A stretch of 64,000 nucleotides of DNA from an uncultured Chloroflexia bacterium (GCA_963828165.1 CAWHDR010000001.1:96001-160000), one strand, 5' to 3'. Positions 10,959 through 22,674 are shown, numbered from the stretch's first letter. Numbers and translations: made by a program. The notes: a model not told the origin generated them from the sequence alone.

Positions 10959-12548
10959 TCAGTAGACAGGCGTCTCCGGCCCGATCGCCTCGAGCCAGGT
11001 CTTGATCGCCTTGAGGAGAGCTGCCGCCTGCGCGCCGTCGTTGGCGCGGTGATCGATCGCGAGGACCATGTTCATGATCGGCCGGATCGCGATGACGTCG
11101 CCGTCCGGCGTCTCCTGGACCACCGGGCGCTTGGTGATCGCCTCCATCGTCAGGATCGCGACCTCCGGCACGTTGATGATCGGCATGGTGAGGTTCGAGC
11201 CGAACCAGCCGGTGTTGTCGATCGTGAAGGTGCTTCCGCCGTAGTCGTCCAGCTTGAGCTTGCCCGCCCGAGCCCGGGCCGCCACGTCGGCGATCGCCCG
11301 GTTCAGGCCGCTGATGCTGAGCTGGTCGACGTCGCGGACGACCGGAACGAGGAGCCCGTCGTCGACGGCGACCGCCACGCCCATGTGGACACGCCGCTTG
11401 GCGAGCACGCCGTTCTCGGTCCAGTGGGCGTTGAATGCCGGGAAATCGCGCAGGGCGGCCACGGCAGCCTTGATCACGAAGGGCACGTAACTCAGCGAGA
11501 TGCCCTCGCGAGCCTGGTAGTCGCGCTTGGCCTTCTCGCGTGCCTTGACGAGGTTGGTGGCGTCGACCTCCATGTGCACGTACGCATGTGGGACCGCGAG
11601 GGCCCGGGTCATCTGCGCGGCGATGCCCTTGCGCATCTGGGTCATCGGGAGGAGGACCTCGTCGGCGCCCTCGGGGAACTCGATCGGGGCGCCGGCCGGC
11701 ATGCGGGCCGGTGGGGCGGCTGGGGCGGCTGGTGCCGCCGCGGCGGTAGGGGCAGGTGATCCACCGGTTGCGGGGGCCGAAGCCGTGGCAGTCGCTCCGT
11801 TGCCCTGGGACATGACCGGTACGGGTGGTGTCCCGCCGGTGCGAATCGATTCGACGACCGCCAGGACGTCGTCGCGGGTGATCCGCCCGCCACCACCCGT
11901 GCCCACGATCTGGTCTGGGCGGAGCGCGTGTTCGCGGAGCAGACGACGGACCGCGGGCGTCATCCGCGCGTCGGGGTCGCCGGTCGAGGTGGCGGAGGCG
12001 GCGGCTGTCGCGGTCGGAGCGGCTTGGGCTGTCGCGGTCGGAGTGGCTTGGGCGGCCGGGGCGGATCCGGCGGGAGCCGCGGCTGGCGCCTCCGCCGGCG
12101 TCGGGGTCGGGGTCGGGGTCGTCGGGGCCGGGGCGGGGGCAGCCGCGGCAGCACGGTCCGTGTCGGCCGGCGCCGACTCATCCGAACCGGCGGGTCCCTT
12201 GGCCGGCGCAGCCGCATCGGGGTCGCGCGGCTCGACCTGGGTCGTCCCTTCCGCCTCGGGCCCGCCTTCCTTCTCGAGCGCCATGGGCGCTGGCGCGTCG
12301 CCACCCGCCTCTTCGGCCGTCTCGATGATGGCGATCTCAGCGTTGTTCGGGACGGTCGCGCCCTCCTCGGCCAGGATCTCCTTGAGGACGCCTTCGAAGG
12401 GCGACGGGACCTCGGCGTTGACCTTGTCCGTGATGACTTCGAGCAGCGGTTCGTACTTCGCGACGGCGTCGCCCGGTTGCTTGAGCCACTTGCCGATCGT
12501 CCCCTCCGCGACGCTCTCGCCGAGCTGGGGCATCGTCACCTTTGCCAC
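10959..12548 (-). CDS. bkdB: Dihydrolipoamide acyltransferase E2 of 2-oxoacid (branched-chain) dehydrogenase
   Basis: Lipoyl domain (MPQLGESV...TDKVNAEVPSP), E3-binding domain (TPAVRRL...GTGGGGRITRDD), DHRANDG; GTG start after GAAGGAG. Confidence 0.92.
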   Translation of the reverse strand: MAKVTMPQLGESVAEGTIGKWLKQPGDAVAKYEPLLEVITDKVNAEVPSPFEGVLKEILAEEGATVPNNAEIAIIETAEEAGGDAPAPMALEKEGGPEAEGTTQVEPRDPDAAAPAKGPAGSDESAPADTDRAAAAAPAPAPTTPTPTPTPAEAPAAAPAGSAPAAQATPTATAQAAPTATAAASATSTGDPDARMTPAVRRLLREHALRPDQIVGTGGGGRITRDDVLAVVESIRTGGTPPVPVMSQGNGATATASAPATGGSPAPTAAAAPAAPAAPPARMPAGAPIEFPEGADEVLLPMTQMRKGIAAQMTRALAVPHAYVHMEVDATNLVKAREKAKRDYQAREGISLSYVPFVIKAAVAALRDFPAFNAHWTENGVLAKRRVHMGVAVAVDDGLLVPVVRDVDQLSISGLNRAIADVAARARAGKLKLDDYGGSTFTIDNTGWFGSNLTMPIINVPEVAILTMEAITKRPVVQETPDGDVIAIRPIMNMVLAIDHRANDGAQAAALLKAIKTWLEAIGPETPVY

Positions 12549-12653
12549 GTTCGCTGCTCCTTCGGGTCGCCTGGTCGCGCCAGCACGTACTCGCGTAGTT
12601 TCCTCCATCACGGCGATGCAGGTCGAGTCGGCAATCCGCGATGGTCAGCGTGC

Positions 12654-15437
12654 ATGATGCGCTCGATGTCCTCTGTCGACCATCGGCTCGCCCGCGCACT
12701 GGGCGTTCGCACCGGCGAAGGCCGCTTGGCCGCGCATGTCGCCCTCGTGTTCGCGGTCATCGAGGCGGGCCGCGGCTTCGGGGAGGTCGGCGTCGATACG
12801 CTGATCCTGGGTCGCTTCGGGGGCGACGCCCTGCCCGAAGTCCTGCCGTTCCTGTTCATGGCGCTCGGCGGGACGAGTCTCGTCGTCGCCCTGGCCTACG
12901 GTGCCGCGTTGGGGCGCCTGCCCCGGGGCCCGCTGTTCGTCGCGATCCTCACGGCGATCGCGGGACTCATCGTCGCCTTGCGCTTCGCTCTCGGCGATGG
13001 CTCCCTGGCGATCGTGGCCGTGTTGTGGTTGACCGTGTACGCGGCCGGGATGCTGGCCGTGACGATGTCCTGGACGGTGGCGAGTGGGTCATTCGACGCC
13101 CGGCAGGCCAAGCGCCTGTTCCCGCTGCTCACCGGGGCCGCGATCGCCGGCTCCTTCGTGGGGACCCTCGGCGCAGGGCCGGCGACGGCGATCGGCGGCG
13201 TCGAGGCCTTGATGGTGATCGAGGCGTCCATGTTGGTCGTGGCGGCGGCACTGATCGCGCGGCTCCCGCGCCGCTCCCCAGCGACCGCGGGTCGTGGTGC
13301 CCGTCGATCGATCGTCGGCGAGATCCTTGCGGGATACCAGTTCGTGGTCCGCTCCCCGTTGATGCGCCTCGTCGCGGTCGCCTACGTGCTGCTGGCGATC
13401 CTGATGTTCTCCGTGTCGTACCCGTTCCTCTTGGCCGCTTCGGCCGCCTTCCCGACGGACGTCGAACGCGCCACCGCGCTCGGGCTGCTGTCGGCAGCGG
13501 TGACCGCCACCTCGTTCATCGTCTCGGTCACGCTGGCCAACCGCATCTACACGAGGTTCGGGGTGACGACGGGTGCAGTCGTCCTGCCGGTCGTCTACCT
13601 CGCCGGGTTCGGGTTGTGGCTCGTCAGCTTCTCGTTCGCGACCGCTGCACTGGTCAGATTCGCCCAACAGGTGACCCAGCGGGGCATCTCGAACGCGGCC
13701 TGGAGCGCCTTCTACAGCACGGTCCCGGCCGAGCGACGAGCCCAGGTCATCGCCTTCAACGACGGGGTACCCGGGCAGGTCGGGATCATCCTGTCCGGCG
13801 CCCTGCTGCTGGCGGCCGGACGATTCCTCGCCGCGGACCAGGTGTTCTGGCTGGGCATCGTGACGGCCCTGGTGGCCACCGGCGTCGTCTGGGGGATCCG
13901 CAGCCGGTACGCGGGCAGCCTGTTACGGGCGTTGCGTTCGGGTGGGGCCGAGCAGGTGCTCGAGGGCGGGGCCGGGATGGGGGCGCTGGTGCGCGACCCG
14001 ACGGTGGTGGAGGCACTGCTCGAGGCCGTTCGAGCCCCGGAACCCGGGGTCCGCGAGATGGCCGTCACCGTGCTCGGGCGCACTGCGCCGCCCGGCTCGC
14101 GGGACGCGCTGGTCGAGGCGCTCGGCGACGGAGACGCGCGCGTCCGGGCCGCAGCGATCGGGGCGCTCGCCCGATCCGCCGACGGATCCGCGGGACTCGA
14201 CCTGGGCCCGTTCGCTTCGGACCCGAGCCCGCTCGTCCGGGCCGCAGCCATCGTCGCGAGGGCCGGACCGGAGGTCGCCCCCGGGAGTCCGCTGCTGTCC
14301 GATGTCTCGCCGGAGGTCCGGGCCGCGGCTCTCGGGCGCCTGCACGGCTCCGATCCGGAGCATCGGATCAGGCTGATCGCCGCCCTGGACGACGACGCCG
14401 CCATCGTCAGGGGGGCAGCGGCCACCGCGCTCGGCGCCTCGCCGAGCGACGGCCGCGATGTCCTGGCTGTCCTGACCGATGGAAGCTCGCGCGCCCAGCT
14501 CGCCGCGCTCAGCGCCTTGGCCGGAGTCGCGGAGAGCGATCCGTCCATTCGCGCGCCAGTAGCCGAGTGGGCCTTCGAGCGGCTGGGCCGCGCGCGCGAG
14601 CTGCGGACGGCCCGGCTCGCGATCGCCCGAGCTGCCAAACCCGGGGGCGCGGCGTCCGGTTCGCAGGCGTTCCTCGTATCCGTGCTGGATCGCCGGGAGG
14701 AGGCCCTCGAGGAGTCCGCACTCGCGGCGCTGGAGGTCCTCGGCGCACCGGAGGCCCGAGGCGTCATCCGGCGCTGCCTCGGATCGAACGATCCCGAGAT
14801 CCGCGCCCAAGCCATCGAAGCATTGGAGACCCTGGCCGATCGCCGGATCGCGACGGCCCTGATCCGCCTCCTCGAGGATGGCGCCGAAACGGGGGTCACG
14901 TCGGCCGACACGGCGCTCCGGCGCATGGCCGATGATGGGGACCCGTGGATCCGGGCATTGGCGCGACACTGCATCCTCGATGCCGGAGGAGACGACATGG
15001 CGGCGACTGAGCGGACCCTGTCCGACCTCGACACGATGCTGCTGCTGCGCAGGATCCCGTTGTTCGAGGGACTCGATCCCGAGGACCTGCAGCGGATCGC
15101 CGACACGTCCGAGGAGCGCACGTTCGACAACGGCGAGACGCTCATCCGCGAGGGCGAGGTCGGACACGAGCTCATCGTCATCGTGGATGGGTCCGTGCGG
15201 GTCGTCCAGGCCAACCCGGACGGCGGCGAACGGGAGATCCGCCGCTACGACGCCGGCCAGCACATCGGTGAGCTGGCCGTCCTGCGCGAGCGACCGCGCG
15301 CGGCAACCGTCGTCGCAGCCGAGCCCGTTCGCGGCCTCGTCATCAGCGGTGACGCGCTCAGGTCGATCCTGCGCGAGCGACCGGGGGCGGCGATGGCGAT
15401 GCTGGCCACGCTCGCCGACCGGATCAGCACGCAGTAG
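12654..15437 (+). CDS. MFS/NTT-like transporter fused to HEAT repeats and C-terminal cyclic-nucleotide-binding domain
   Basis: About 12 hydrophobic segments with FDARQAKRLFPL; repeated DxxPxVRxAA HEAT units; IPLFEGL...IGELAVLRERPRAATV cNMP cassette; start 12654-12666. Confidence 0.85.
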   Translation: MMRSMSSVDHRLARALGVRTGEGRLAAHVALVFAVIEAGRGFGEVGVDTLILGRFGGDALPEVLPFLFMALGGTSLVVALAYGAALGRLPRGPLFVAILTAIAGLIVALRFALGDGSLAIVAVLWLTVYAAGMLAVTMSWTVASGSFDARQAKRLFPLLTGAAIAGSFVGTLGAGPATAIGGVEALMVIEASMLVVAAALIARLPRRSPATAGRGARRSIVGEILAGYQFVVRSPLMRLVAVAYVLLAILMFSVSYPFLLAASAAFPTDVERATALGLLSAAVTATSFIVSVTLANRIYTRFGVTTGAVVLPVVYLAGFGLWLVSFSFATAALVRFAQQVTQRGISNAAWSAFYSTVPAERRAQVIAFNDGVPGQVGIILSGALLLAAGRFLAADQVFWLGIVTALVATGVVWGIRSRYAGSLLRALRSGGAEQVLEGGAGMGALVRDPTVVEALLEAVRAPEPGVREMAVTVLGRTAPPGSRDALVEALGDGDARVRAAAIGALARSADGSAGLDLGPFASDPSPLVRAAAIVARAGPEVAPGSPLLSDVSPEVRAAALGRLHGSDPEHRIRLIAALDDDAAIVRGAAATALGASPSDGRDVLAVLTDGSSRAQLAALSALAGVAESDPSIRAPVAEWAFERLGRARELRTARLAIARAAKPGGAASGSQAFLVSVLDRREEALEESALAALEVLGAPEARGVIRRCLGSNDPEIRAQAIEALETLADRRIATALIRLLEDGAETGVTSADTALRRMADDGDPWIRALARHCILDAGGDDMAATERTLSDLDTMLLLRRIPLFEGLDPEDLQRIADTSEERTFDNGETLIREGEVGHELIVIVDGSVRVVQANPDGGEREIRRYDAGQHIGELAVLRERPRAATVVAAEPVRGLVISGDALRSILRERPGAAMAMLATLADRISTQ

Positions 15438-15446
15438 GGTCACCAG

Positions 15447-18074
15447 ATGCAAGAGCTCGCCGAGAGACGCGACCTCCCGACCGGCACGGTCACCTTCCTG
15501 CGAACCGACGTCGAAAGCTCGATGGTGCTGGCACGCACGGCCGGCGCGGACTGGGACGCGCTCAATGCCACCCATGTCGCGCTCATACGCCGCGCGATCG
15601 TCGATCACGGCGGCGTGCTCGTTCGAACGGAGGGCGACGGGATCTTTGCCGTCTTCACGGACGCCGGAGCGGCAGTTGCCGCGGCCATCGACGGACAACG
15701 GCTGATCGGCGACCACGCCTGGCCGCGGGAGGCCACGATCCGGGTGCGGATGGCCCTCCACACGGGTGAGGCGCATCGGGCGGGGGACGACTACGGGGGC
15801 TTCGAGGTCAACCGCGCGGCACGGATCGCCGGCGCCGGGCACGGTGGGCAGATCGTCCTGTCGGAGGCCACCCGGGCACTGGCTGCCGATGTGTTGCCGG
15901 ACGGCGTTCTGGTCCGCGATCTGGGCCTCCATTCGCTCAAGGACGTTCCCCGCCCCGAACGGCTGTTCCAGCTGGACGTCCCCGGCCTGCGCACGGAGTT
16001 CCCACCCCTGCGCACGGCCGGGACCGCCTTGGGCGACGTCCCGGTCCCGCTGACGAGCTTCATCGGTCGGCGTCGAGAAGTCGGGGAGCTGCTCGAACTC
16101 CTGGAGGGTCACCGGCTGCTGACCCTGACCGGACCCGGTGGCATCGGCAAGACACGACTCGCGATCGAGCTCGCCCGGTCGAGTTCGACCGCCGCGCCGG
16201 ACGGCACGTGGTTCGTCGCGCTCGACGAGATCGAAGAGCCGGCGCTCGTTCCGTCGGCCATCGCGCGCACCATGGGTCTCTTCGACGGACCGGAGCGATC
16301 CGCCGCCGATGCGCTTCTCCCGTACCTGGCGGATCGCTCTGCGCTGCTGGTCCTGGACAACCTCGAGCACCTGATGGGAGCGACGTCCGACGTCACGGCG
16401 ATCCTCCGCGGCTCTCCCGGAACGCGTGTCGTGGTCACCAGCCGATCGCCGCTGCGGATCAGCGGCGAACAGGAGTATCCGGTTCGACCGCTCGAGGCGT
16501 CGGCCTCGGGAGCGCACGATTCGGTGGCCCTGTTCGTCGAGCGTGCGCAGCGGGTCCGGCCCGGGTTCGATCCCGGTCCCGAAGCCGCCACTATCGCCGA
16601 GATCTGCGAGCTGCTGGACGGGCTTCCGCTGGGCATCGAGCTCGCCGCGGCACGCACATCGCTGCTGCCACTGCCGGCGATCCGCGATCGTTTGGGGGCG
16701 CGCCTGCCGCTTCCGGGCGCCGGGCTCCGCGACGTGCCCGATCGACAACGGACGTTGGAGGGTGCGATCAGCTGGAGCTACGCCCTGCTGCCGCCGGAGC
16801 GGCAGCGTCTGCTGCGCGACATCTCCGTCTTCGACGGGGGATTCGATCTCGAGCAGGTCGACGCCCTCCAGGGCGGCGCCGATGTGCTCGATGGGCTCCT
16901 GGAACTCGTCGACCAGAGCCTCCTGATGCGTGAATCCGGTGGTGAGATCCGCTTCCGGATGCTGCGGACGATCGGGACGTTCGCGTTGGCCGAGCTGGAG
17001 GCCGAGGGCCGATCCACAGAGCTCCGGCGACAGCACGCGCTTGCATATCTGGCGCTTGCCGAGACCGCGGCGCCCAACCTGCCGGGTGCGGATCAACCTC
17101 GCTGGCTCGATCGGCTCGGCCTGGACCACGCGAATCTGCGAGCCGCGATGCGCTGGGCACTCGACGCGGGCGAGGTGGACCTGGCATTCCGGCTCCTCGC
17201 CGGGCTGTGGCGGTACTGGCAGCTTGACGGCCACCTGGCCGAGGGCGCCGAGCTGGCCCACGCCGCGATCTCCCTGCCCGGGGCGGAGCTCCCGACGCCG
17301 CATCGCCTCGCGGCCATCACTGCCCTGGGCAACATCGCCTACTGGCAGGGTCGTGCCGATGAGGCGGTCCGCTACTACGAGGAGCAGCTGGCGCTGGCTC
17401 GCGAGCTTGGGGACCGCGCCGCGGAAGCGGATGCGGTCTTCAACCTCTCGTACGGCGCCTTCATCCGTCAGGACTTCGCGCTCACCTACGAGCGGGTGGA
17501 AACCGCGCGGGCCCTGTACCTGGAGGTCGGCGACGCCCGCGGCGCGGCTCGGACCGACTGGAGCCTGGCGACCGCTGTCATGAGCGAGGGACGGCCGGGC
17601 GATGCCCTGCCGATGTTCGAGGCAGCCGCGGAACGCTTCGCCGAGCTCGGCGACGTCTGGTACCACGCGATGGCGACCGGCAGCGTCGCGTGGGCCATGT
17701 TCGCGACTGGCGACATGCGCGGTGCCACGCACAAGTTCGCGGAGTCCCTGGCCGAGTACCGCGCGCTGCGCGACGTCGGAACCACCGCGATCTCCATCCA
17801 GATCGGCGCGATCGTCGCGCTGATCGCCGGTCGACCGGAGGACGCGGCTGTGCTGCTCGGCGCCACCGAGAGCCTGACCGAGCGATACGGGGTCGTGCCA
17901 CCAGCCGGCCTCGCATGGCTGATCGGCGCCCAGAACCCGAATGAGCGGGTGGCGGAGGTGCTCGAACCGGACGTGCTGGCGTCCGCGCTTGAACGGGGCC
18001 GGCGATTCGGTCTCGACGAGGCGGTGGAACTCGTCGTCCGGATCGAATCCGAATTGCCTACGGTCGAGAGATAG
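15447..18074 (+). CDS. Class III adenylate/guanylate cyclase + STAND (NB-ARC-like) ATPase + TPR protein
   Basis: PTGTVTFLRTDVE, RTEGD, EVNRAAR cyclase motifs; Walker A GPGGIGKT, Walker B LLVLDN, GLPL; helical repeats. Confidence 0.92.
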   Translation: MQELAERRDLPTGTVTFLRTDVESSMVLARTAGADWDALNATHVALIRRAIVDHGGVLVRTEGDGIFAVFTDAGAAVAAAIDGQRLIGDHAWPREATIRVRMALHTGEAHRAGDDYGGFEVNRAARIAGAGHGGQIVLSEATRALAADVLPDGVLVRDLGLHSLKDVPRPERLFQLDVPGLRTEFPPLRTAGTALGDVPVPLTSFIGRRREVGELLELLEGHRLLTLTGPGGIGKTRLAIELARSSSTAAPDGTWFVALDEIEEPALVPSAIARTMGLFDGPERSAADALLPYLADRSALLVLDNLEHLMGATSDVTAILRGSPGTRVVVTSRSPLRISGEQEYPVRPLEASASGAHDSVALFVERAQRVRPGFDPGPEAATIAEICELLDGLPLGIELAAARTSLLPLPAIRDRLGARLPLPGAGLRDVPDRQRTLEGAISWSYALLPPERQRLLRDISVFDGGFDLEQVDALQGGADVLDGLLELVDQSLLMRESGGEIRFRMLRTIGTFALAELEAEGRSTELRRQHALAYLALAETAAPNLPGADQPRWLDRLGLDHANLRAAMRWALDAGEVDLAFRLLAGLWRYWQLDGHLAEGAELAHAAISLPGAELPTPHRLAAITALGNIAYWQGRADEAVRYYEEQLALARELGDRAAEADAVFNLSYGAFIRQDFALTYERVETARALYLEVGDARGAARTDWSLATAVMSEGRPGDALPMFEAAAERFAELGDVWYHAMATGSVAWAMFATGDMRGATHKFAESLAEYRALRDVGTTAISIQIGAIVALIAGRPEDAAVLLGATESLTERYGVVPPAGLAWLIGAQNPNERVAEVLEPDVLASALERGRRFGLDEAVELVVRIESELPTVER

Positions 18075-18086
18075 CGGCGGGCTGGC

Positions 18087-18818
18087 TCAGGACGCCGGCG
18101 TCCCCGCCGAACTCGCGTCCGCGTGCGATTCCGCGTCAGCGTCAGTCTCGACGTCACCAAGGGTGAGCCAGCCCTGACGGGCCGCAAACGTGACAGCACG
18201 GACACGGTTGGGCACCCCCAGCTTGTGCAGGATGCTCGACACGTGGTTCTTGACCGTCTGCTCGCTGACGTCGAAGAGCTCCCCGATCTCGCGGTTGCGC
18301 TTCCCTCCGGCGATCAGGCGGAGGACGTCCAGCTCCCTCGGGGTCAGCGGGTTGGTCGTTGGGCCGTCCGGGTGTCGGGTGCTCTCCCGGAAGCCCTCCA
18401 TGATCCTGTCGATCAGATCGGGCCTTCCGATCACCTCGGCGCGCAATGGATCTTCGCCATCGGCGACCTGGCGGATCACCGCCACGAGCTCGGCAGGCTT
18501 CGCAGCGGCGGCAACGTGACCCGCTGCGCCGATCTCGACGGCCCCCAGGATGCTCGCGTCGTCGTCTTCACGACCGACGACCACGATCCCGGAAGTCGGG
18601 GCCTCCAGGACGAGTCGCTGGGAGGCGGCACTGGTTTCGGGCTCCTGCAGCTCCACGTCGAGGATGAACACGTCGGGGGCGTCATCCCGGGCGACCGCAA
18701 GCGCGTCGTCGGCAGAGCGGACCTCCGCGACGACCTCCATGTCGACCTCGCGATCGAGGACGCCGCGGATCCCCAGACCCGCGAGGGTCCTGGGTTCGAC
18801 GAGGACGATCCGAATCAT
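18087..18818 (-). CDS. NarL/LuxR-family response regulator with atypical receiver domain
   Basis: LTPRELDVL...SEQTVKNHVSSILHKL HTH; receiver keeps FILD but lacks DD, Thr/Ser and Lys; start 18818 or up to 18857. Confidence 0.88.
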   Translation of the reverse strand: MIRIVLVEPRTLAGLGIRGVLDREVDMEVVAEVRSADDALAVARDDAPDVFILDVELQEPETSAASQRLVLEAPTSGIVVVGREDDDASILGAVEIGAAGHVAAAAKPAELVAVIRQVADGEDPLRAEVIGRPDLIDRIMEGFRESTRHPDGPTTNPLTPRELDVLRLIAGGKRNREIGELFDVSEQTVKNHVSSILHKLGVPNRVRAVTFAARQGWLTLGDVETDADAESHADASSAGTPAS

Positions 18819-18906
18819 GTCGCGACCAGGCATCGTTGCAGGCTGTGATCGTCCCATCGTGGTGCGTCTCCTGGGCGCTGGGGGTACGCGCTTGCGTGGA
18901 GGCTAC

Positions 18907-19150
18907 CTACGAACGGCACATCGCGCATGACCCGAAGGGACCAACTTCGCGCGAGCCGTTCGTTCTCCCATCGGCGCTCGCCCATGCAACGACTTGCGAG
19001 TGCGTGGCAACTCGTAGATCGCGCTGCGCCGCACCCCAGGGCGTATCGCCGCCCGTGGCCTCGTTGCCCGTGACGTGCATGCGCGCGGCATACGGCGAGA
19101 GCATGGCCTTGAACCGATCGAACAGCAGCCCGAATTCGTCCGGCTGCCAC
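18907..19150 (-). pseudogene. Degraded small-gene remnant downstream of E1 beta
   Basis: GGAGG + GTG at 19150, immediate frameshift into protein-like DEFGLLFDRFKAMLSPYAARMHV, then degenerate sequence. Confidence 0.35.
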
Positions 19151-19166
19151 CCCCGTGCCCTCCGCG

Positions 19167-20150
19167 TCAGTACGCCGCCAGCGTCCGGATGCCCGCTTCG
19201 ATCTTCTCGGGACTGACCATGAACCAGTCCTCGAGAACGTGGTTGTACGGCACGCCCGGGACGTCCGGCCCCGCGATGCGCGTGACCGGCCCGTCGAGGT
19301 AGTCGAACGCCTCTTCGGCGACGATCGCCGCGACTTCCGCGCCGTACCCGCCGAACCGGTTGTCCTCGTAGACGATCAGGCACTTGCCGGTCTTGCGGAC
19401 CGACTCGAGGACGGTCTCGGTGTCCAGCGGGCGGAGCGTCCGCAGGTCGACCACCTCCACGCTGATCCCATCGTCCGCGACGCGGTCCGCGGCCTCGAGC
19501 GCGTAGTGCGCCATGAGCCCGTACGCGATGACCGATACCTGCGAGCCCGGGTGCGTGACCGCCGCCTTGCCCAGGGGAACCGTGTAGTCGGTGTCCGGCA
19601 CATCGCCTCGCACGGAGCGGTACATCTTCTTGTGCTCGAAGAACAGCACGGGGTCCTCGTCGCGGATCGACGCGCGAAGCAGGCCGCGAGCGTCGTACGG
19701 TGTGGACGGGATCACGACCTTGAGGCCCGGCACGTGGGTGAAGAACGCCTCGACGCTCTGCGAATGATAGAGCGCGCCGTGGACGCCGCCGCCGTACGGG
19801 GCCCGGATCACCATCGGGACGCCGTAGCCGTTGTTCGAGCGATATCGCATCCGTGCCGCCTCGGACACGATCTGGTTGAACGCCGGGAAGATGAAGTCGG
19901 CGAACTGGATCTCGGCGATCGGCCGGAGGCCGTTCACGGCAGCGCCGATCGACGCGCCGATGATCATCGATTCGGTGAGCGGCGTATCGATCACCCGGTC
20001 GTCGCCGAACTCCGCCCACAGACCGTCCGTGGCGAGGAACACGCCGCCCTTCTTGCCGACGTCCTCGCCCAAGACGATGATCGACTCGTCCCGGCGCATC
20101 TCGTCCGCCAGCGTCTCGCGGATCGCCTCGATGAACGTCCTTGCCGGCAT
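19167..20150 (-). CDS. bkdAB: 2-oxoacid dehydrogenase E1 beta subunit (branched-chain type)
   Basis: GEDVGKKGGVF, DTPLTE, AEIQFADF, HSQS, FEHK. Confidence 0.93.
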   Translation of the reverse strand: MPARTFIEAIRETLADEMRRDESIIVLGEDVGKKGGVFLATDGLWAEFGDDRVIDTPLTESMIIGASIGAAVNGLRPIAEIQFADFIFPAFNQIVSEAARMRYRSNNGYGVPMVIRAPYGGGVHGALYHSQSVEAFFTHVPGLKVVIPSTPYDARGLLRASIRDEDPVLFFEHKKMYRSVRGDVPDTDYTVPLGKAAVTHPGSQVSVIAYGLMAHYALEAADRVADDGISVEVVDLRTLRPLDTETVLESVRKTGKCLIVYEDNRFGGYGAEVAAIVAEEAFDYLDGPVTRIAGPDVPGVPYNHVLEDWFMVSPEKIEAGIRTLAAY

Positions 20151-21212
20151 CTACTCGGTGTCCTCGGCGAACACGTAGCGCATGGCGGTGGACGGATCGG
20201 GGTCGGGCTGGGACTCGGCGTAGTCGGTCGCCTCCTCTACCGAGGCCTTGATCTCGGCCGTCAGCCGCTCCTCGATCTCGTCGGTGAGGACGCCGGCGTC
20301 GCGCAGCTGCGCCCGGAAGGCCGGCACGGGGTCGCGCTCGCGCTCGGCCGCGAGCTCGTCCTCGCTCCGGTACTTCGTCTGCTGGTCGTCCGAGGAGTGA
20401 CCGGTCAGGCGGGTGACCTTGGCCTCGATGAGCGTGGGGCCGTCCCCTGCCCGCGCCCGGGCGACCGCGTCGCGCGCGGCTGCATAGCAGGCCAGGACGT
20501 CGTTGCCGTCCACGATCACGCCGGGGATGCCGTATCCGGCCGCACGATCGGCAACGTTCGGGCTCGACACCTGGCGCGCCATCGGGACGCTGATCGCGTA
20601 GCCGTTGTTCTCGACCACGTAGATGAACGGGAGCTTGTGGATCGCCGCGAAGTTCAGGCCCTCGTGGACGTCGCCCTGGTTGCTGCTCCCCTCCCCCATG
20701 CTCGTCATCGCGACCTGGCCGGTCTTGCGGACCTTGGCCGCGAGCGCGATCCCGACCGCGTGGAGCAGCTGCGTCGCCACCGGCGACGAGACGCTGACGA
20801 GGTTGTGCTCGTGCGAGCCGTAATGCCCGGGCATCTGGCGACCGCCGGAGCTCGGGTCGTTGGCGGTCGCGTACTGCGCCGTCAGGATGTCGCGCGGGCT
20901 CATCCCGAACGTGAGACACGTGGCGATCGAGCGATAGAACGGGGCGATCCAGTCGTGGCCACGCTTGAACGCCCAGGCGATCCCGACCTGGGCGCCCTCG
21001 TGGCCCTGACCGGAGATGACGAACGGGATCCGCCCGGCTCGGTTGAGGATCCACATCCGCTCGTCGAGCGAGCGGGCAAGCGCGACATAGCGGTACATCT
21101 CGACGAGGTCGGCGTCGGTCAGGCCGACCGAGGCCGCGAGGCTGCCCGCCGCTTCGCCGGGGGCGGCGCCCTCGGTGCCTCCCTTGGCGGCGTCGCTCTT
21201 GGTCACGGCCAT
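20151..21212 (-). CDS. bkdAA: 2-oxoacid dehydrogenase E1 alpha subunit (branched-chain type)
   Basis: GRIPFVISGQGHE, GRQMPGH, TPP motif GEGSSNQG...ENN, HSSDD; ATG 21212 after GGAGG. Confidence 0.93.
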   Translation of the reverse strand: MAVTKSDAAKGGTEGAAPGEAAGSLAASVGLTDADLVEMYRYVALARSLDERMWILNRAGRIPFVISGQGHEGAQVGIAWAFKRGHDWIAPFYRSIATCLTFGMSPRDILTAQYATANDPSSGGRQMPGHYGSHEHNLVSVSSPVATQLLHAVGIALAAKVRKTGQVAMTSMGEGSSNQGDVHEGLNFAAIHKLPFIYVVENNGYAISVPMARQVSSPNVADRAAGYGIPGVIVDGNDVLACYAAARDAVARARAGDGPTLIEAKVTRLTGHSSDDQQTKYRSEDELAAERERDPVPAFRAQLRDAGVLTDEIEERLTAEIKASVEEATDYAESQPDPDPSTAMRYVFAEDTE

Positions 21213-21231
21213 CGTGGTCGATCGGCCTCCG

Positions 21232-22674
21232 TCAGAAGTTGATGGACCGGCCGTCCACCGCCATCGCCGCTTCGCCGATGACCTCGGACAGGGTCGGGTG
21301 GGCGTGGGTCGCGCCGCCGATCTCCCACGCGGTCGCGTCGAGCTCGAAGGCAAGCGAGGCCTCGGCGATGAGGTCGGTGGCATGCGGTCCGACGATGTGG
21401 ACGCCGAGGATGTCCTGGTTCTCCGGGTTCGAGATGACCTTCGCGAAGCCCTCGTACTCGCCGCCGATGATGGCTTTGGCGATGGCCTGGAACGGGACCT
21501 TGCCCACCTTGTACGGCGTGCCCGTCGCCTTGACCTGCTCCTCGGTCAAACCGATCGAAGCGATCTCGGGGTGGCAATACGTGGCGCGGGGCTGCTTCGT
21601 GTAGTCCATCTCGTGGACATCGGCTTCGCCGGCGATCACGTGCGCCGCGATGAGCCCCTCGTGCGCGGCGGTGTGGGCCAGCCACAAGCCGCCGATGATG
21701 TCGCCGATGGCGTAGACGTGCGACTCCTTCGTGCGCATCCGTCCGTTGACCTTGATGACGCCCTTGTCGGTCTCGACCTTGGTCGTCTCGAGGCCGATCT
21801 CCTCGATGTTCGCAGCTCGACCGGTCGCGACGAGCATCATGTCGGCGCGCAGCTCCCCTTGTTCCTTGCCCTCGGGGCCGACCATCAGGCAGATGCCGTC
21901 CTTGTCCGTGCTGACTGCCGCCGGATCGAAGCGGGCGTTGGTCATCACCGTCATGCCGCGCTTCTCGAACGAGCGCTGGACGACCTTCCCGACCTCGGCG
22001 TCTTCGAGCGGGACGATCTGGGGCGCGTACTCGAGCAGCGTCACCTTCACGCCGACGTCGTGGAACATCGAGGCGAACTCGACGCCGACGGCGCCGGCTC
22101 CGACGATCACGATGTCCTTGGGCAGGGTGGTCATGCGCAGGATGTCGTCGCTCGTGACGATCTTCTGACCGTCGGGATCCAGGCCCGGCAGGCTCTTGAC
22201 ACGAGAGCCGGTCGCGAGGATGACGTCCGTCGCCTGGAGGACCCGCTCGCCACCCTTGCCGGGGGTGCCGTCCTCACCGGGTTGGGCGACGCGGATCTTC
22301 TGCGGGCCGTCGAGGCGGCCTCGGCCGTCGATCCAGGTGACCTTGTTCTTGTCGACGAGGGTCTTGAGCCCGGTCCACATCCGCTTCACGACCTGGTCCC
22401 GCCGCGCCGCCATCTGCGCGTAGTCGATGGTGGCCTCGCCCGGGAGCGTGAGTCCGAAGTCCTTCGCGTGGCGAAGGCGGTCGGCGAACGCGGCCAATTC
22501 GAGCAGCGCCTTGGTCGGGATACAGCCGCGGTGGAGGCATGTGCCGCCGATCTTGCCCTCGTCGACGAGCGCAACCTTGAGCCCGAGCTGGCCCGCACGG
22601 AAGGCGGCCGTGTACCCGCCCGTGCCAGCGCCGAGCACGACGAGGTCGAAGTCGTTGGAGGAGCCGACGGCCAT
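21232..22674 (-). CDS. lpdA: Dihydrolipoyl dehydrogenase E3
   Basis: GAGTGG, GGTCLHRGCIPTK, GAGAVG, HAHPTLSE. Confidence 0.96.
   Translation of the reverse strand: MAVGSSNDFDLVVLGAGTGGYTAAFRAGQLGLKVALVDEGKIGGTCLHRGCIPTKALLELAAFADRLRHAKDFGLTLPGEATIDYAQMAARRDQVVKRMWTGLKTLVDKNKVTWIDGRGRLDGPQKIRVAQPGEDGTPGKGGERVLQATDVILATGSRVKSLPGLDPDGQKIVTSDDILRMTTLPKDIVIVGAGAVGVEFASMFHDVGVKVTLLEYAPQIVPLEDAEVGKVVQRSFEKRGMTVMTNARFDPAAVSTDKDGICLMVGPEGKEQGELRADMMLVATGRAANIEEIGLETTKVETDKGVIKVNGRMRTKESHVYAIGDIIGGLWLAHTAAHEGLIAAHVIAGEADVHEMDYTKQPRATYCHPEIASIGLTEEQVKATGTPYKVGKVPFQAIAKAIIGGEYEGFAKVISNPENQDILGVHIVGPHATDLIAEASLAFELDATAWEIGGATHAHPTLSEVIGEAAMAVDGRSINF

Follow-up and report, generated by a model that had tools for sequence, protein, structure and literature searches.

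The window analysed here, a stretch of 64,000 nt from an uncultured Chloroflexia bacterium (GCA_963828165.1 CAWHDR010000001.1:96001-160000; ~70% G+C), carries two adjacent genes whose predicted products suggest a relationship between them. The first, here called T, encodes a membrane transporter fused to HEAT repeats and a cyclic-nucleotide-binding (CNB) domain; the second, here called C, encodes a class III nucleotidyl cyclase fused to a STAND ATPase and TPR repeats. The question raised by this locus is whether the two genes form one functional unit, in which the cyclase makes the messenger sensed by the transporter, or are merely neighbours. Gene structures, domains, conserved catalytic and binding residues, operon-like linkage and co-absence of the two genes were observed in this study. 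T and C are linked well beyond chance, and the recurrence of the pairing in many soil bacteria points to a messenger-controlled transporter. It is probable, in our opinion, that C is a sensor-cyclase making cyclic AMP (cAMP), which gates the transporter T through its CNB domain.

Domain organisation of T and C

The two genes and their domains are located in the window as follows.

12654..15437, plus strand: gene T, NTT-HEAT-cNBD transporter of 927 aa (open reading frame and translation; TAG stop at 15435-15437)
12720..13937, plus strand: T aa 23-428, 12-helix NTT/MFS-type membrane domain (hydrophobicity, AlphaFold2, Foldseek, weak PF03219)
13998..14984, plus strand: T aa 449-777, HEAT-repeat solenoid (HEAT_2; helical repeats in the model)
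15024..15431, plus strand: T aa 791-926, CNB domain (PF00027, Foldseek)
15267-15305, plus strand: T aa 872-884, phosphate-binding cassette GELA...RAA (GELA 872-875, RAA 882-884)
15447..18074, plus strand: gene C, class III cyclase-NB-ARC(STAND)-TPR protein of 875 aa (open reading frame and translation)
15468..15974, plus strand: C aa 8-176, class III nucleotidyl cyclase catalytic domain (Ma1120 and LipJ matches)
16059..16646, plus strand: C aa 205-400, NB-ARC/STAND P-loop NTPase (NB-ARC above cut-off)
17160..17861, plus strand: C about aa 572-805, TPR sensor region (TPR_12; AfsR and FxSxx-type TPR)

The spacer between the TAG of T and the ATG of C at 15447 is 9 nt. The CNB domain of T was matched by PF00027 (cNMP_binding) at aa 822-908 with E 1e-20 (73.8 bits against a cut-off of 27.5), and HEAT_2 was found in three stretches (E 5e-24 in the whole protein, 3.6e-26 in a fragment). 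For the membrane domain, about 12 hydrophobic helices were indicated by both a hydrophobicity scan and the AlphaFold2 model, in which 12 long helices are followed by a helical-repeat solenoid and a beta-sandwich CNB domain (mean pLDDT 77.5; pTM 0.51, with the interdomain arrangement uncertain). The N-terminal 439 aa matched the TLC/NTT family PF03219 at E 0.003 (16.7 bits, below the cut-off of 21) and MFS_1 at E 0.77, and a phmmer search of the membrane domain against the PDB gave 0 matches. In Foldseek comparisons the modelled membrane domain resembled the solved ATP/ADP translocator AtNTT1 of Arabidopsis (9j3m_A; TM 0.70 by target, 482 columns, 16% identity), and the modelled CNB domain resembled those of CRP, GlxR, PKA and PKG (TM 0.5-0.8). 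As a lead only, 30 of 30 named ESM Atlas matches were TLC/MFS clusters of the type 'ATP:ADP antiporter / NTP/NDP exchange'. PF03219 and the annotation 'Npt1/Npt2 family nucleotide transporter' are found in some relatives of T. The HEAT-CNB part is predicted to be cytoplasmic, since the N-terminal segment, the central segment and the segment after helix 12 are Arg-rich (positive-inside rule).

Full-length relatives of T are 44-100% identical to it, and an alignment of 24 T sequences had a mean column identity of 57%. Conservation was highest in the CNB domain (mean column identity 0.81), followed by the membrane domain (0.74), which contains many invariant polar residues, and was lowest in the HEAT region (0.56-0.61). 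Residues G872, E873, L874, A875 and R882 of the cassette were invariant in 24/24 sequences, and its RAA motif is as in PKA.

The N-terminal 198 aa of C matched the solved class III cyclase Ma1120 (4wp3) at E 1.7e-17 in phmmer, which also found 8 more class III cyclases of known structure (E up to 3.4e-4); the LipJ cyclase domain was matched at E 1.3e-11. Both metal-binding Asp residues, D21 (in TD) and D64 (in GDG), as well as D115 and R126, are present in 47/47 relatives. The NxxxR motif is N122...R126, with N122 kept in 36 of the 47 and replaced by His in 7 and Ser in 4. Aligned with Ma1120, R60 pairs with Lys101, D115 with Asp157, N122 with Ala164 and R126 with the conserved Arg. According to the part of the Ma1120 report available (PMC4215837), this Lys contacts N1 and this Asp the 6-amino group of adenine, and the enzyme is active despite Ala at the Asn position.

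The ATPase of C was recognised as NB-ARC (26.2 bits against a cut-off of 23.5), with nSTAND1 and nSTAND3 below their Pfam cut-offs. Its Walker A motif is GPGGIGKT (229-236) and its Walker B motif LLVLDN (299-305); G229, G231, G232, G234, K235 and D304 are invariant in 26/26 orthologues. TPR repeats, matched by TPR_12 (E 4e-10) and by AfsR and FxSxx-type TPR, make up the last third of C, where conservation is lowest (0.55). Neither GerE nor any other helix-turn-helix (HTH) domain was found in C by Pfam, and relatives of C are named 'predicted ATPase/class 3 adenylate cyclase'. Sequencing runs covered small shares of the window, and among them short contigs of a soil metatranscriptome library (X2) matched C at 15660-15810 (3 differences), 15826-15976 (2), 16653-16818 (0) and 17353-17503 (6); transcription of C is not shown by these contigs, which could possibly derive from DNA carry-over or close relatives.

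A preliminary description made from the sequence alone had read this DNA as a HEAT-MFS/NTT-like transporter with a cyclic nucleoside monophosphate (cNMP) domain, followed 9 nt later by a cyclase-STAND-TPR gene, and open reading frames, domains and fold agree with it. The residues that it named in the cyclase, i.e., the metal Asp of TD and GD, NxxxR and an Arg in place of Lys, correspond to D21, D64, N122...R126 and R60, and the GELA...RAA cassette that it reported in T is present.

Association of T with class III cyclases

The preliminary description further proposed that the cyclase and the CNB transporter act as one functional unit and named gene-neighbourhood analysis as a check. The proposal is strongly supported by the neighbourhoods, in which both gene orders and varied cyclases occur, and by co-absence. 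A total of 91 loci with a T relative (L numbers below) was collected, 7 from species-representative genomes, 5 from a phylum sample and 79 from metagenomes, and scanned with tblastn and two hidden Markov models built from cyclase and DUF2652 domains; gene calls in these loci came from a simple caller based on G+C at third codon positions. In 71 loci T was at least 42% identical (close relatives), and 49 of these reach the 3' end of T with at least 150 nt beyond. A cyclase domain begins less than 400 nt downstream of T on the same strand in 44 of the 49, and C lies upstream of T in 2 more of them (L039, L042). C was not seen in the remaining 3, L090, L091 and L100, which belong to one sub-lineage and are cut by a contig end on the upstream side. 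In L061, L062 and L096, C is directly upstream of T, with a 4-nt overlap or a gap of ~3 nt; no pyruvate dehydrogenase (PDH) genes were found in the available DNA of L061 and L062, nor in that of L096, where only ~1.2 kb upstream is present. Estimates of the distance from T stop to C start were made for 64 loci, and most of the values are 8-11 nt or -4 (a 4-nt overlap). Most close loci share the context of E2 and E1 beta genes described below, with E1 beta ~90% identical.

As the genome of 3.31 Mb contains 12 cyclase-domain matches, a cyclase would be expected beside a given gene with a chance well under 1/100. T and C are moreover absent together, since the best full-length matches of C in 5/5 same-genus genomes lacking T are 38-43% identical, i.e., paralogues. 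Mean pairwise identity was 0.54 for T, 0.54 for C and 0.89 for E1 beta, with r(T,C) of 0.57 over 78 non-independent pairs; T and C thus diverge at an equal pace, and faster than the flanking genes.

Among 401 genomes of a class sample, T was present in 44, a count that includes the source genome (G000) and the unpublished genomes G478 and G506. The numbers by taxon, with G000 excluded, are as follows.

Genus g1: T in 17/28 genomes
Family f1: T in 24/137 genomes
Family f4: T in 16/92 genomes
Family f3: T in 3/153 genomes

The neighbourhood was taken from 40 of the T-bearing genomes, with G478 and G506 left out. Of the 25 f1 and f3 genomes, 21 have a largely intact C beside T (upstream in L134, in two copies in L116); C is a remnant or broken in 3 (L119, L121, L137) and was not seen in 1 (L139, which is fragmentary). 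The T-C pair occupies the same operon slot across two families of the class. Several individual loci vary from the common plan. Only a short cyclase remnant accompanies an otherwise kept T at L038:8027-8429 and L119:5815-5988, and at L137:7977-9136 a deletion appears to have taken both the 3' part of T and the 5' half of C. Two tandem copies of C follow T in a metagenome locus (L084:1492-6701) and in the genome of L116. An adenosine deaminase gene (L061:1870-2949, plus strand), seen once, lies upstream of a C-then-T pair, with an unassigned open reading frame between them (L061:3374-4528), and a PIN-domain gene (L039:10257-10664, plus strand) is found downstream of another T relative.

More distant relatives, in which T is 31-41% identical, the DNA has 52-67% G+C and the contexts vary, provided 18 assessable loci. 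A cyclase-fold domain is encoded by the immediate neighbour in 13 of them, in differing architectures.

L026, L028, L029, L060, L078: DUF2652, mostly fused to SRPBCC (Polyketide_cyc2)
L055, L059: two tandem zinc-ribbon-cyclase-AAA_16 genes, the first with TPR
L072: C-terminal cyclase
L076, L077, L079: small cyclases
L102: TPR-cyclase
L081: C-type

A cyclase neighbour was not seen in L027, L064, L105 and L108, and L075 is cut after the start of a TPR region. In family f4, DUF2652 and/or a small cyclase is adjacent to T in 7/15 genomes and another has DUF2652 ~3-4 kb off; no cyclase was seen near T in the other 7, 3 of them truncated at a contig end.

The DUF2652 partners keep the motifs ADISGYT, LEGDAVFA and GSDVNLIHRL, which correspond to the two Asp residues and NxxxR. 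The top 50 Foldseek matches of a DUF2652 AlphaFold2 model (pLDDT 74) were only class III adenylyl/guanylyl cyclase domains (E 1e-9), with TM of 0.70-0.78 against CyaC, Rv1900c and Cya2. Profile-profile comparison of the DUF2652 neighbours with C was not significant (probability 2.2%, E 0.021), although the motif columns align, and no cyclase came up when the PDB was searched with a profile of the DUF2652 alignment. The cyclase identity of DUF2652 was instead settled on the basis of the fold. In a quick tree of T (41 rows, in which the 'C-down' labels of L040, L052 and L063 are wrong, their downstream side not being assessable), the STAND-type partner marks one fully supported clade of 24 rows, while other partner types are in sister clades and DUF2652 appears in three places.

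Some further neighbours were recorded at the distant loci. A TIR_2-WD40 protein of 1002 aa is encoded 1.6 kb downstream of T in L029 (12647-15655, plus strand); together with the PIN gene of L039, it is the only defence- or toxin-like neighbour seen among the T loci. In L064 (3713-7048, minus strand) and L105 (9975-13310, minus strand), both with no adjacent cyclase, a gene for an 1111-aa protein lacking Pfam and NCBIfam matches converges on T. A mannosyl-3-phosphoglycerate synthase gene is upstream of T in the same two loci, and in L060 it is the second gene upstream, past DUF2652.

The CNB-then-cyclase order is also seen elsewhere in the source genome, which has 9 CNB matches (that of T included) beside its 12 cyclase-domain matches. 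The closest paralogue of C, a cyclase-NB-ARC-TPR gene, is directly preceded by a 149-aa CNB-only gene (L112:3309-7115; G000:C1 ~2021300-2025100), whose product is the most T-like CNB domain of the genome (40% identity). A second CNB gene at this locus is divergent from, or facing, the cyclase gene. The locus is a transporter-free version of the CNB-then-cyclase order. Two other places in this genome bring such domains near each other: a Crp-type regulator gene one gene from a zinc-ribbon-cyclase-AAA_16 gene (L113:3776-7805), and an MFS_1-CNB fusion of 630 aa with a TPR-cyclase and a cyclase of 549 aa encoded 2-4 kb away (L114:2269-10575).

Proposed mechanism and its alternatives

Ligand-driven oligomerisation and cyclase dimerisation are established for the STAND and class III families, respectively. 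For the pair studied here, a STAND-driven activation of C is inferred, as are the nature of the messenger, of the cargo and of the stimulus and the way in which the information flows. C would be the input: a ligand or protein would bind its TPR region, the NB-ARC NTPase would oligomerise and thereby bring about the head-to-tail class III cyclase dimers needed for catalysis, and these would produce a cyclic purine nucleotide, most likely cAMP. T would be the output: the messenger would bind its cytoplasmic C-terminal CNB domain, and the resulting change may pass through the HEAT solenoid to the 12-helix NTT-type domain and alter transport of a cargo that is probably an anionic nucleotide. cAMP is favoured because of the Asp at the adenine position (D115) and the PKA-like RAA cassette. 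When T aa 430-927 and C aa 1-200 were modelled as a complex, the score was 0.00, which is evidence neither for nor against binding.

Several points weigh against a dedicated cAMP-gated transporter. The enzymatic, binding and transport steps are all predicted from sequences and models, and the putative membership of T in the NTT family is suggested by the fold together with weak sequence signals. On the cyclase side, Guanylate_cyc (PF00211) reached 18.2 bits, below the gathering cut-off of 21.9. The position of the adenine-binding Lys holds Arg in 38 of the 47 relatives (R60 in C), Gly in 7 and Gln in 2, and the product of C is uncertain because of this replacement. No adjacent cyclase was present in the available DNA of 5/18 distant loci and 7/15 f4 genomes, and the 44/49 close loci are not 44 independent events, since close relatives are kin and share one synteny block. 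T does not strictly need C, as it persists with a decayed C in L038, L119 and L121. Moreover, the 11 other cyclase and 8 other CNB matches in the genome make cross-talk possible, so that the pair need not be exclusive, and the 'self-contained' circuit of the preliminary description was therefore too strong a term.

If the messenger were the cargo itself, C would make cAMP and T would export it, with the CNB domain as a substrate-sensing gate, for extracellular signalling or messenger clearance. The nucleotide-transporter fold of the membrane domain (the AtNTT1 and Atlas matches) is in line with this, and linkage to any cyclase, whatever its sensor, would follow naturally when the product is the cargo. 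ATP/ADP exchange with the environment would be of little obvious use to free-living soil bacteria. However, substrate recognition needs no CNB domain, and we know of no NTT that carries a cNMP. Known NTTs import or exchange NTP/NDP or NAD, according to the available text of Major et al. (2017; PMC5381601). The present data do not separate a messenger that regulates T from one that T transports, and on balance we regard export as unlikely.

Information could also flow in the opposite direction, with T as a transceptor whose transport state switches C on by contact through the HEAT repeats, the CNB domain providing feedback. HEAT and TPR repeats are both protein-interaction modules, tight operon coupling is typical of complex-forming proteins, and a diffusible messenger assigns no role to the HEAT region. 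On the other hand, the partner cyclases have unrelated non-catalytic domains, so that a conserved contact could only be made via the cyclase domain itself, and this makes signalling by contact quite improbable.

The preliminary description also compared the pair with the Pycsar and Avs anti-phage systems. In such a hybrid the STAND-TPR part would sense a phage protein, the cyclase would signal and T would kill or arrest the cell, e.g., by nucleotide leakage. A STAND-TPR sensor with an N-terminal effector beside a CNB-bearing membrane protein fits this logic, and the CNB domain of T (aa 813-925), the only part of T to do so, matches the CNB part of the Pycsar effector model PycTIR at E 2.5e-14. 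The distribution is patchy (17/28 other genomes of the genus, 44/401 of the class), gene decay is frequent (L038, L119, L121, L137), C is duplicated in L084 and L116, and T and C evolve faster than their flanks, with TPR the least conserved part of C. However, C had no PADLOC match to a cyclase (PycC), Avs or STAND model at E up to 0.01, its sole PADLOC match being a generic TPR model (E 6.8e-7). The pair keeps its slot in a core metabolic operon across two families, not in a defence island, and searches of 72,556 plasmids and of 50,697 phage records found no match to T. The distant partner cyclases bear small-molecule-type sensor domains such as SRPBCC, and T, a strongly conserved transporter of 12 helices in which many polar residues never vary, is unlike the simple pore-forming effectors. 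A defence role of the T-C pair is not supported, and the anti-phage comparison is considered highly unlikely to hold.

Least probable of all is that T and C are neighbours by descent in one lineage, each serving a cell-wide cAMP network, as might be suggested by the many cyclases and CNB proteins of the genome, by the single inherited synteny block of most close relatives and by the survival of T without C in some genomes: the adjacency outlasts changed gene order or context (L042, L061, L062, L096, L134), recurs in distant T clades with at least 5 other cyclase architectures, has a spacing short enough to allow translational coupling, and is matched by co-absence in 5/5 genomes.

Genomic setting, related systems and significance

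T, C and a response regulator gene interrupt a minus-strand operon of a 2-oxoacid dehydrogenase complex, with E3, E1 alpha and E1 beta on one side and E2, a small gene and lipoyl synthase on the other.

10959..12611, minus strand: E2, dihydrolipoyl acyltransferase of the complex (Pfam 2-oxoacid_dh, Biotin_lipoyl, E3_binding)
18087..18857, minus strand: NarL-type response regulator of 256 aa, receiver and GerE/LuxR HTH (Pfam and NCBIfam)
19167-20150, minus strand: E1 beta of the complex (Pfam; NCBIfam PDH E1 beta)
20151-21383, minus strand: E1 alpha of the complex (Pfam)
21232-22674, minus strand: E3 of the complex (Pfam)

E1 beta scored above the cut-off of the PDH E1-beta subfamily in NCBIfam (337.5 vs 321 bits). 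E2 is divergent from T, the two open reading frames starting ~42 nt apart, and it recurs as the neighbour of T in most close relatives. The gaps flanking the T-C-regulator block are 18857-19167 and 12611-12654, and a promoter and terminator scan of 12300-19300 found nothing. The frame of T is open for 242 codons upstream of its true start (11928-12653, plus strand), Arg/Gly-rich and antisense to E2; this is an artefact of the high G+C content and not a coding extension. In the alignment of 24 sequences, the relatives of T start near residue 5-10 as counted from 12654.

The stop of the response regulator gene is 12 nt from that of C, so the two genes converge. The preliminary description had correctly noted this convergence of what it called a LuxR-type regulator, which is actually a two-domain response regulator (Response_reg and GerE); among the scanned loci, the gene was found only in L001, L002, L003, L005, L025 and L119. 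It is outside the conserved T-C module and confined to the closest relatives. No histidine kinase gene adjoins it. Its receiver contains the phospho-acceptor Asp (in ILD) and the KP motif, and has LVEP where NarL-type receivers as a rule carry an acidic DD pair.

In three genomes without T (two of the same genus, one of the same family), the E3, E1 alpha, E1 beta, E2 and LipA genes are consecutive on a single strand, with an E1 beta-E2 gap of 0.5-2.3 kb. Since these genomes keep the operon genes in one row, T-C, with or without the regulator, is a presence/absence block at a variable spot of the operon. In the same-genus genome G124 the gap (L109:4477-6690) contains an AlkZ-like DNA glycosylase gene and, on the opposite strand, an open reading frame of 252 aa with no Pfam match; in the two others it is only 0.5-0.8 kb. 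A functional tie between the module and the pyruvate-dehydrogenase-type operon was considered and rejected. Distant T relatives adjoin unrelated genes, e.g., those for mannosyl-3-phosphoglycerate synthase, lactate permease, carbonic anhydrase and glycogen phosphorylase, and the AlkZ-like gene in the same gap also counts against such a tie. Because distant T relatives sit in other contexts, the position between E1 beta and E2 probably reflects an accident of history rather than a functional requirement.

The NTT-HEAT-cNBD architecture was described in 2017 as monophyletic and widespread in bacteria and also present in oomycetes, with no function reported in the text available (Major, Embley and Williams, Genome Biol Evol, PMC5381601). 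The same text records NTT-HEAT(-cNBD) proteins in many bacterial phyla, in oomycetes and, as NTT-HEAT, in pathogenic chlamydiae, and suggests that the cNBD may bind cAMP from an adenylate cyclase. T shares the HEAT repeats and C-terminal cNBD of this family and, to judge from its predicted fold, the NTT membrane domain; however, linkage to cyclases is not mentioned in that part of the paper, whereas here a cyclase was found beside most of the members examined. Two later papers mention NTT-HEAT in passing. No prior report of a systematic T-cyclase linkage was found in the literature searched; most subscription journals and supplements lay outside this search and an earlier report is possible. 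Canonical NTTs (AtNTT1; chlamydial Npt1/Npt2) share the 12-helix fold predicted for T at marginal sequence similarity but lack the HEAT and CNB domains.

Like Rv0386, an active cyclase, C combines a class III cyclase at its N-terminus with a MalT/STAND-type P-loop ATPase and TPR. Rv0386, Rv1358 and Rv2488c are described as mycobacterial cyclase-ATPase-TPR-LuxR proteins, with a Gln/Asn substrate pair in place of the Arg/Asp of C, in the available part of a recent preprint (bioRxiv 10.1101/2024.03.06.583649). Their C-terminal LuxR HTH is missing from C, beside which an HTH is encoded by the separate, non-conserved regulator gene, and C differs further in adjoining a gene for a CNB-bearing membrane protein. 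Pycsar is likewise a two-gene unit, in which a pyrimidine cyclase is combined with a CNB effector often having membrane helices. This two-gene plan is common to T-C, but C lacks a PycC match and has STAND-TPR, T is a 12-helix NTT with HEAT repeats, and the context is a metabolic operon. Gating of the kind proposed for T is known from SLC9C1, a Na+/H+ exchanger of sperm, and from the bacterial channel SthK, whose activity is set by cAMP or cGMP on a fused cytoplasmic CNB domain at the C-terminus. Their membrane folds are unrelated to that of T (the similarity is in the CNB only; TM 0.13 for SLC9C1), and they lack both a HEAT linker and a co-encoded cyclase. DUF2652, the immediate partner of distant T relatives, belongs to another cyclase subfamily than C, is mostly SRPBCC-fused and is without STAND-TPR. 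It was predicted to be class III cyclase-like, and was noted near CNB genes of mycobacteria (Rv2561 near Rv2564 and Rv2565), in the accessible text of Ramakrishnan et al. (2016, Biol Direct, PMC4886424).

T is thus best placed in a described but functionally uncharacterised family, and C is an HTH-less relative of a known architecture; the conserved T-cyclase pairing is therefore the new element within the known theme of a cyclase plus a CNB effector. For the biochemistry of the NTT-HEAT-cNBD family, the linkage to class III cyclases of many architectures supplies a cognate enzyme, and with it a concrete model of cyclic-nucleotide gating of a transporter that can be put to the test. It is also independent support for the DUF2652 proteins as real cyclases, and it adds an example of a STAND NTPase whose output would be a second-messenger cyclase with an identifiable dedicated receiver. 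It is conceivable, though doubtful, that the NTT-HEAT-cNBD proteins at large are dedicated cNMP exporters or cNMP-gated nucleotide valves, each with its own sensor-cyclase, and there is a similarly small chance that free-living bacteria release cAMP-type signals or nucleotides in this way on cues sensed by the partner cyclase. Such logic, if true, would extend to uncharacterised family members in cyanobacteria, chlamydiae and oomycetes, and if the cargo is the messenger or ATP, T would represent a new route of nucleotide release or exchange in free-living bacteria.

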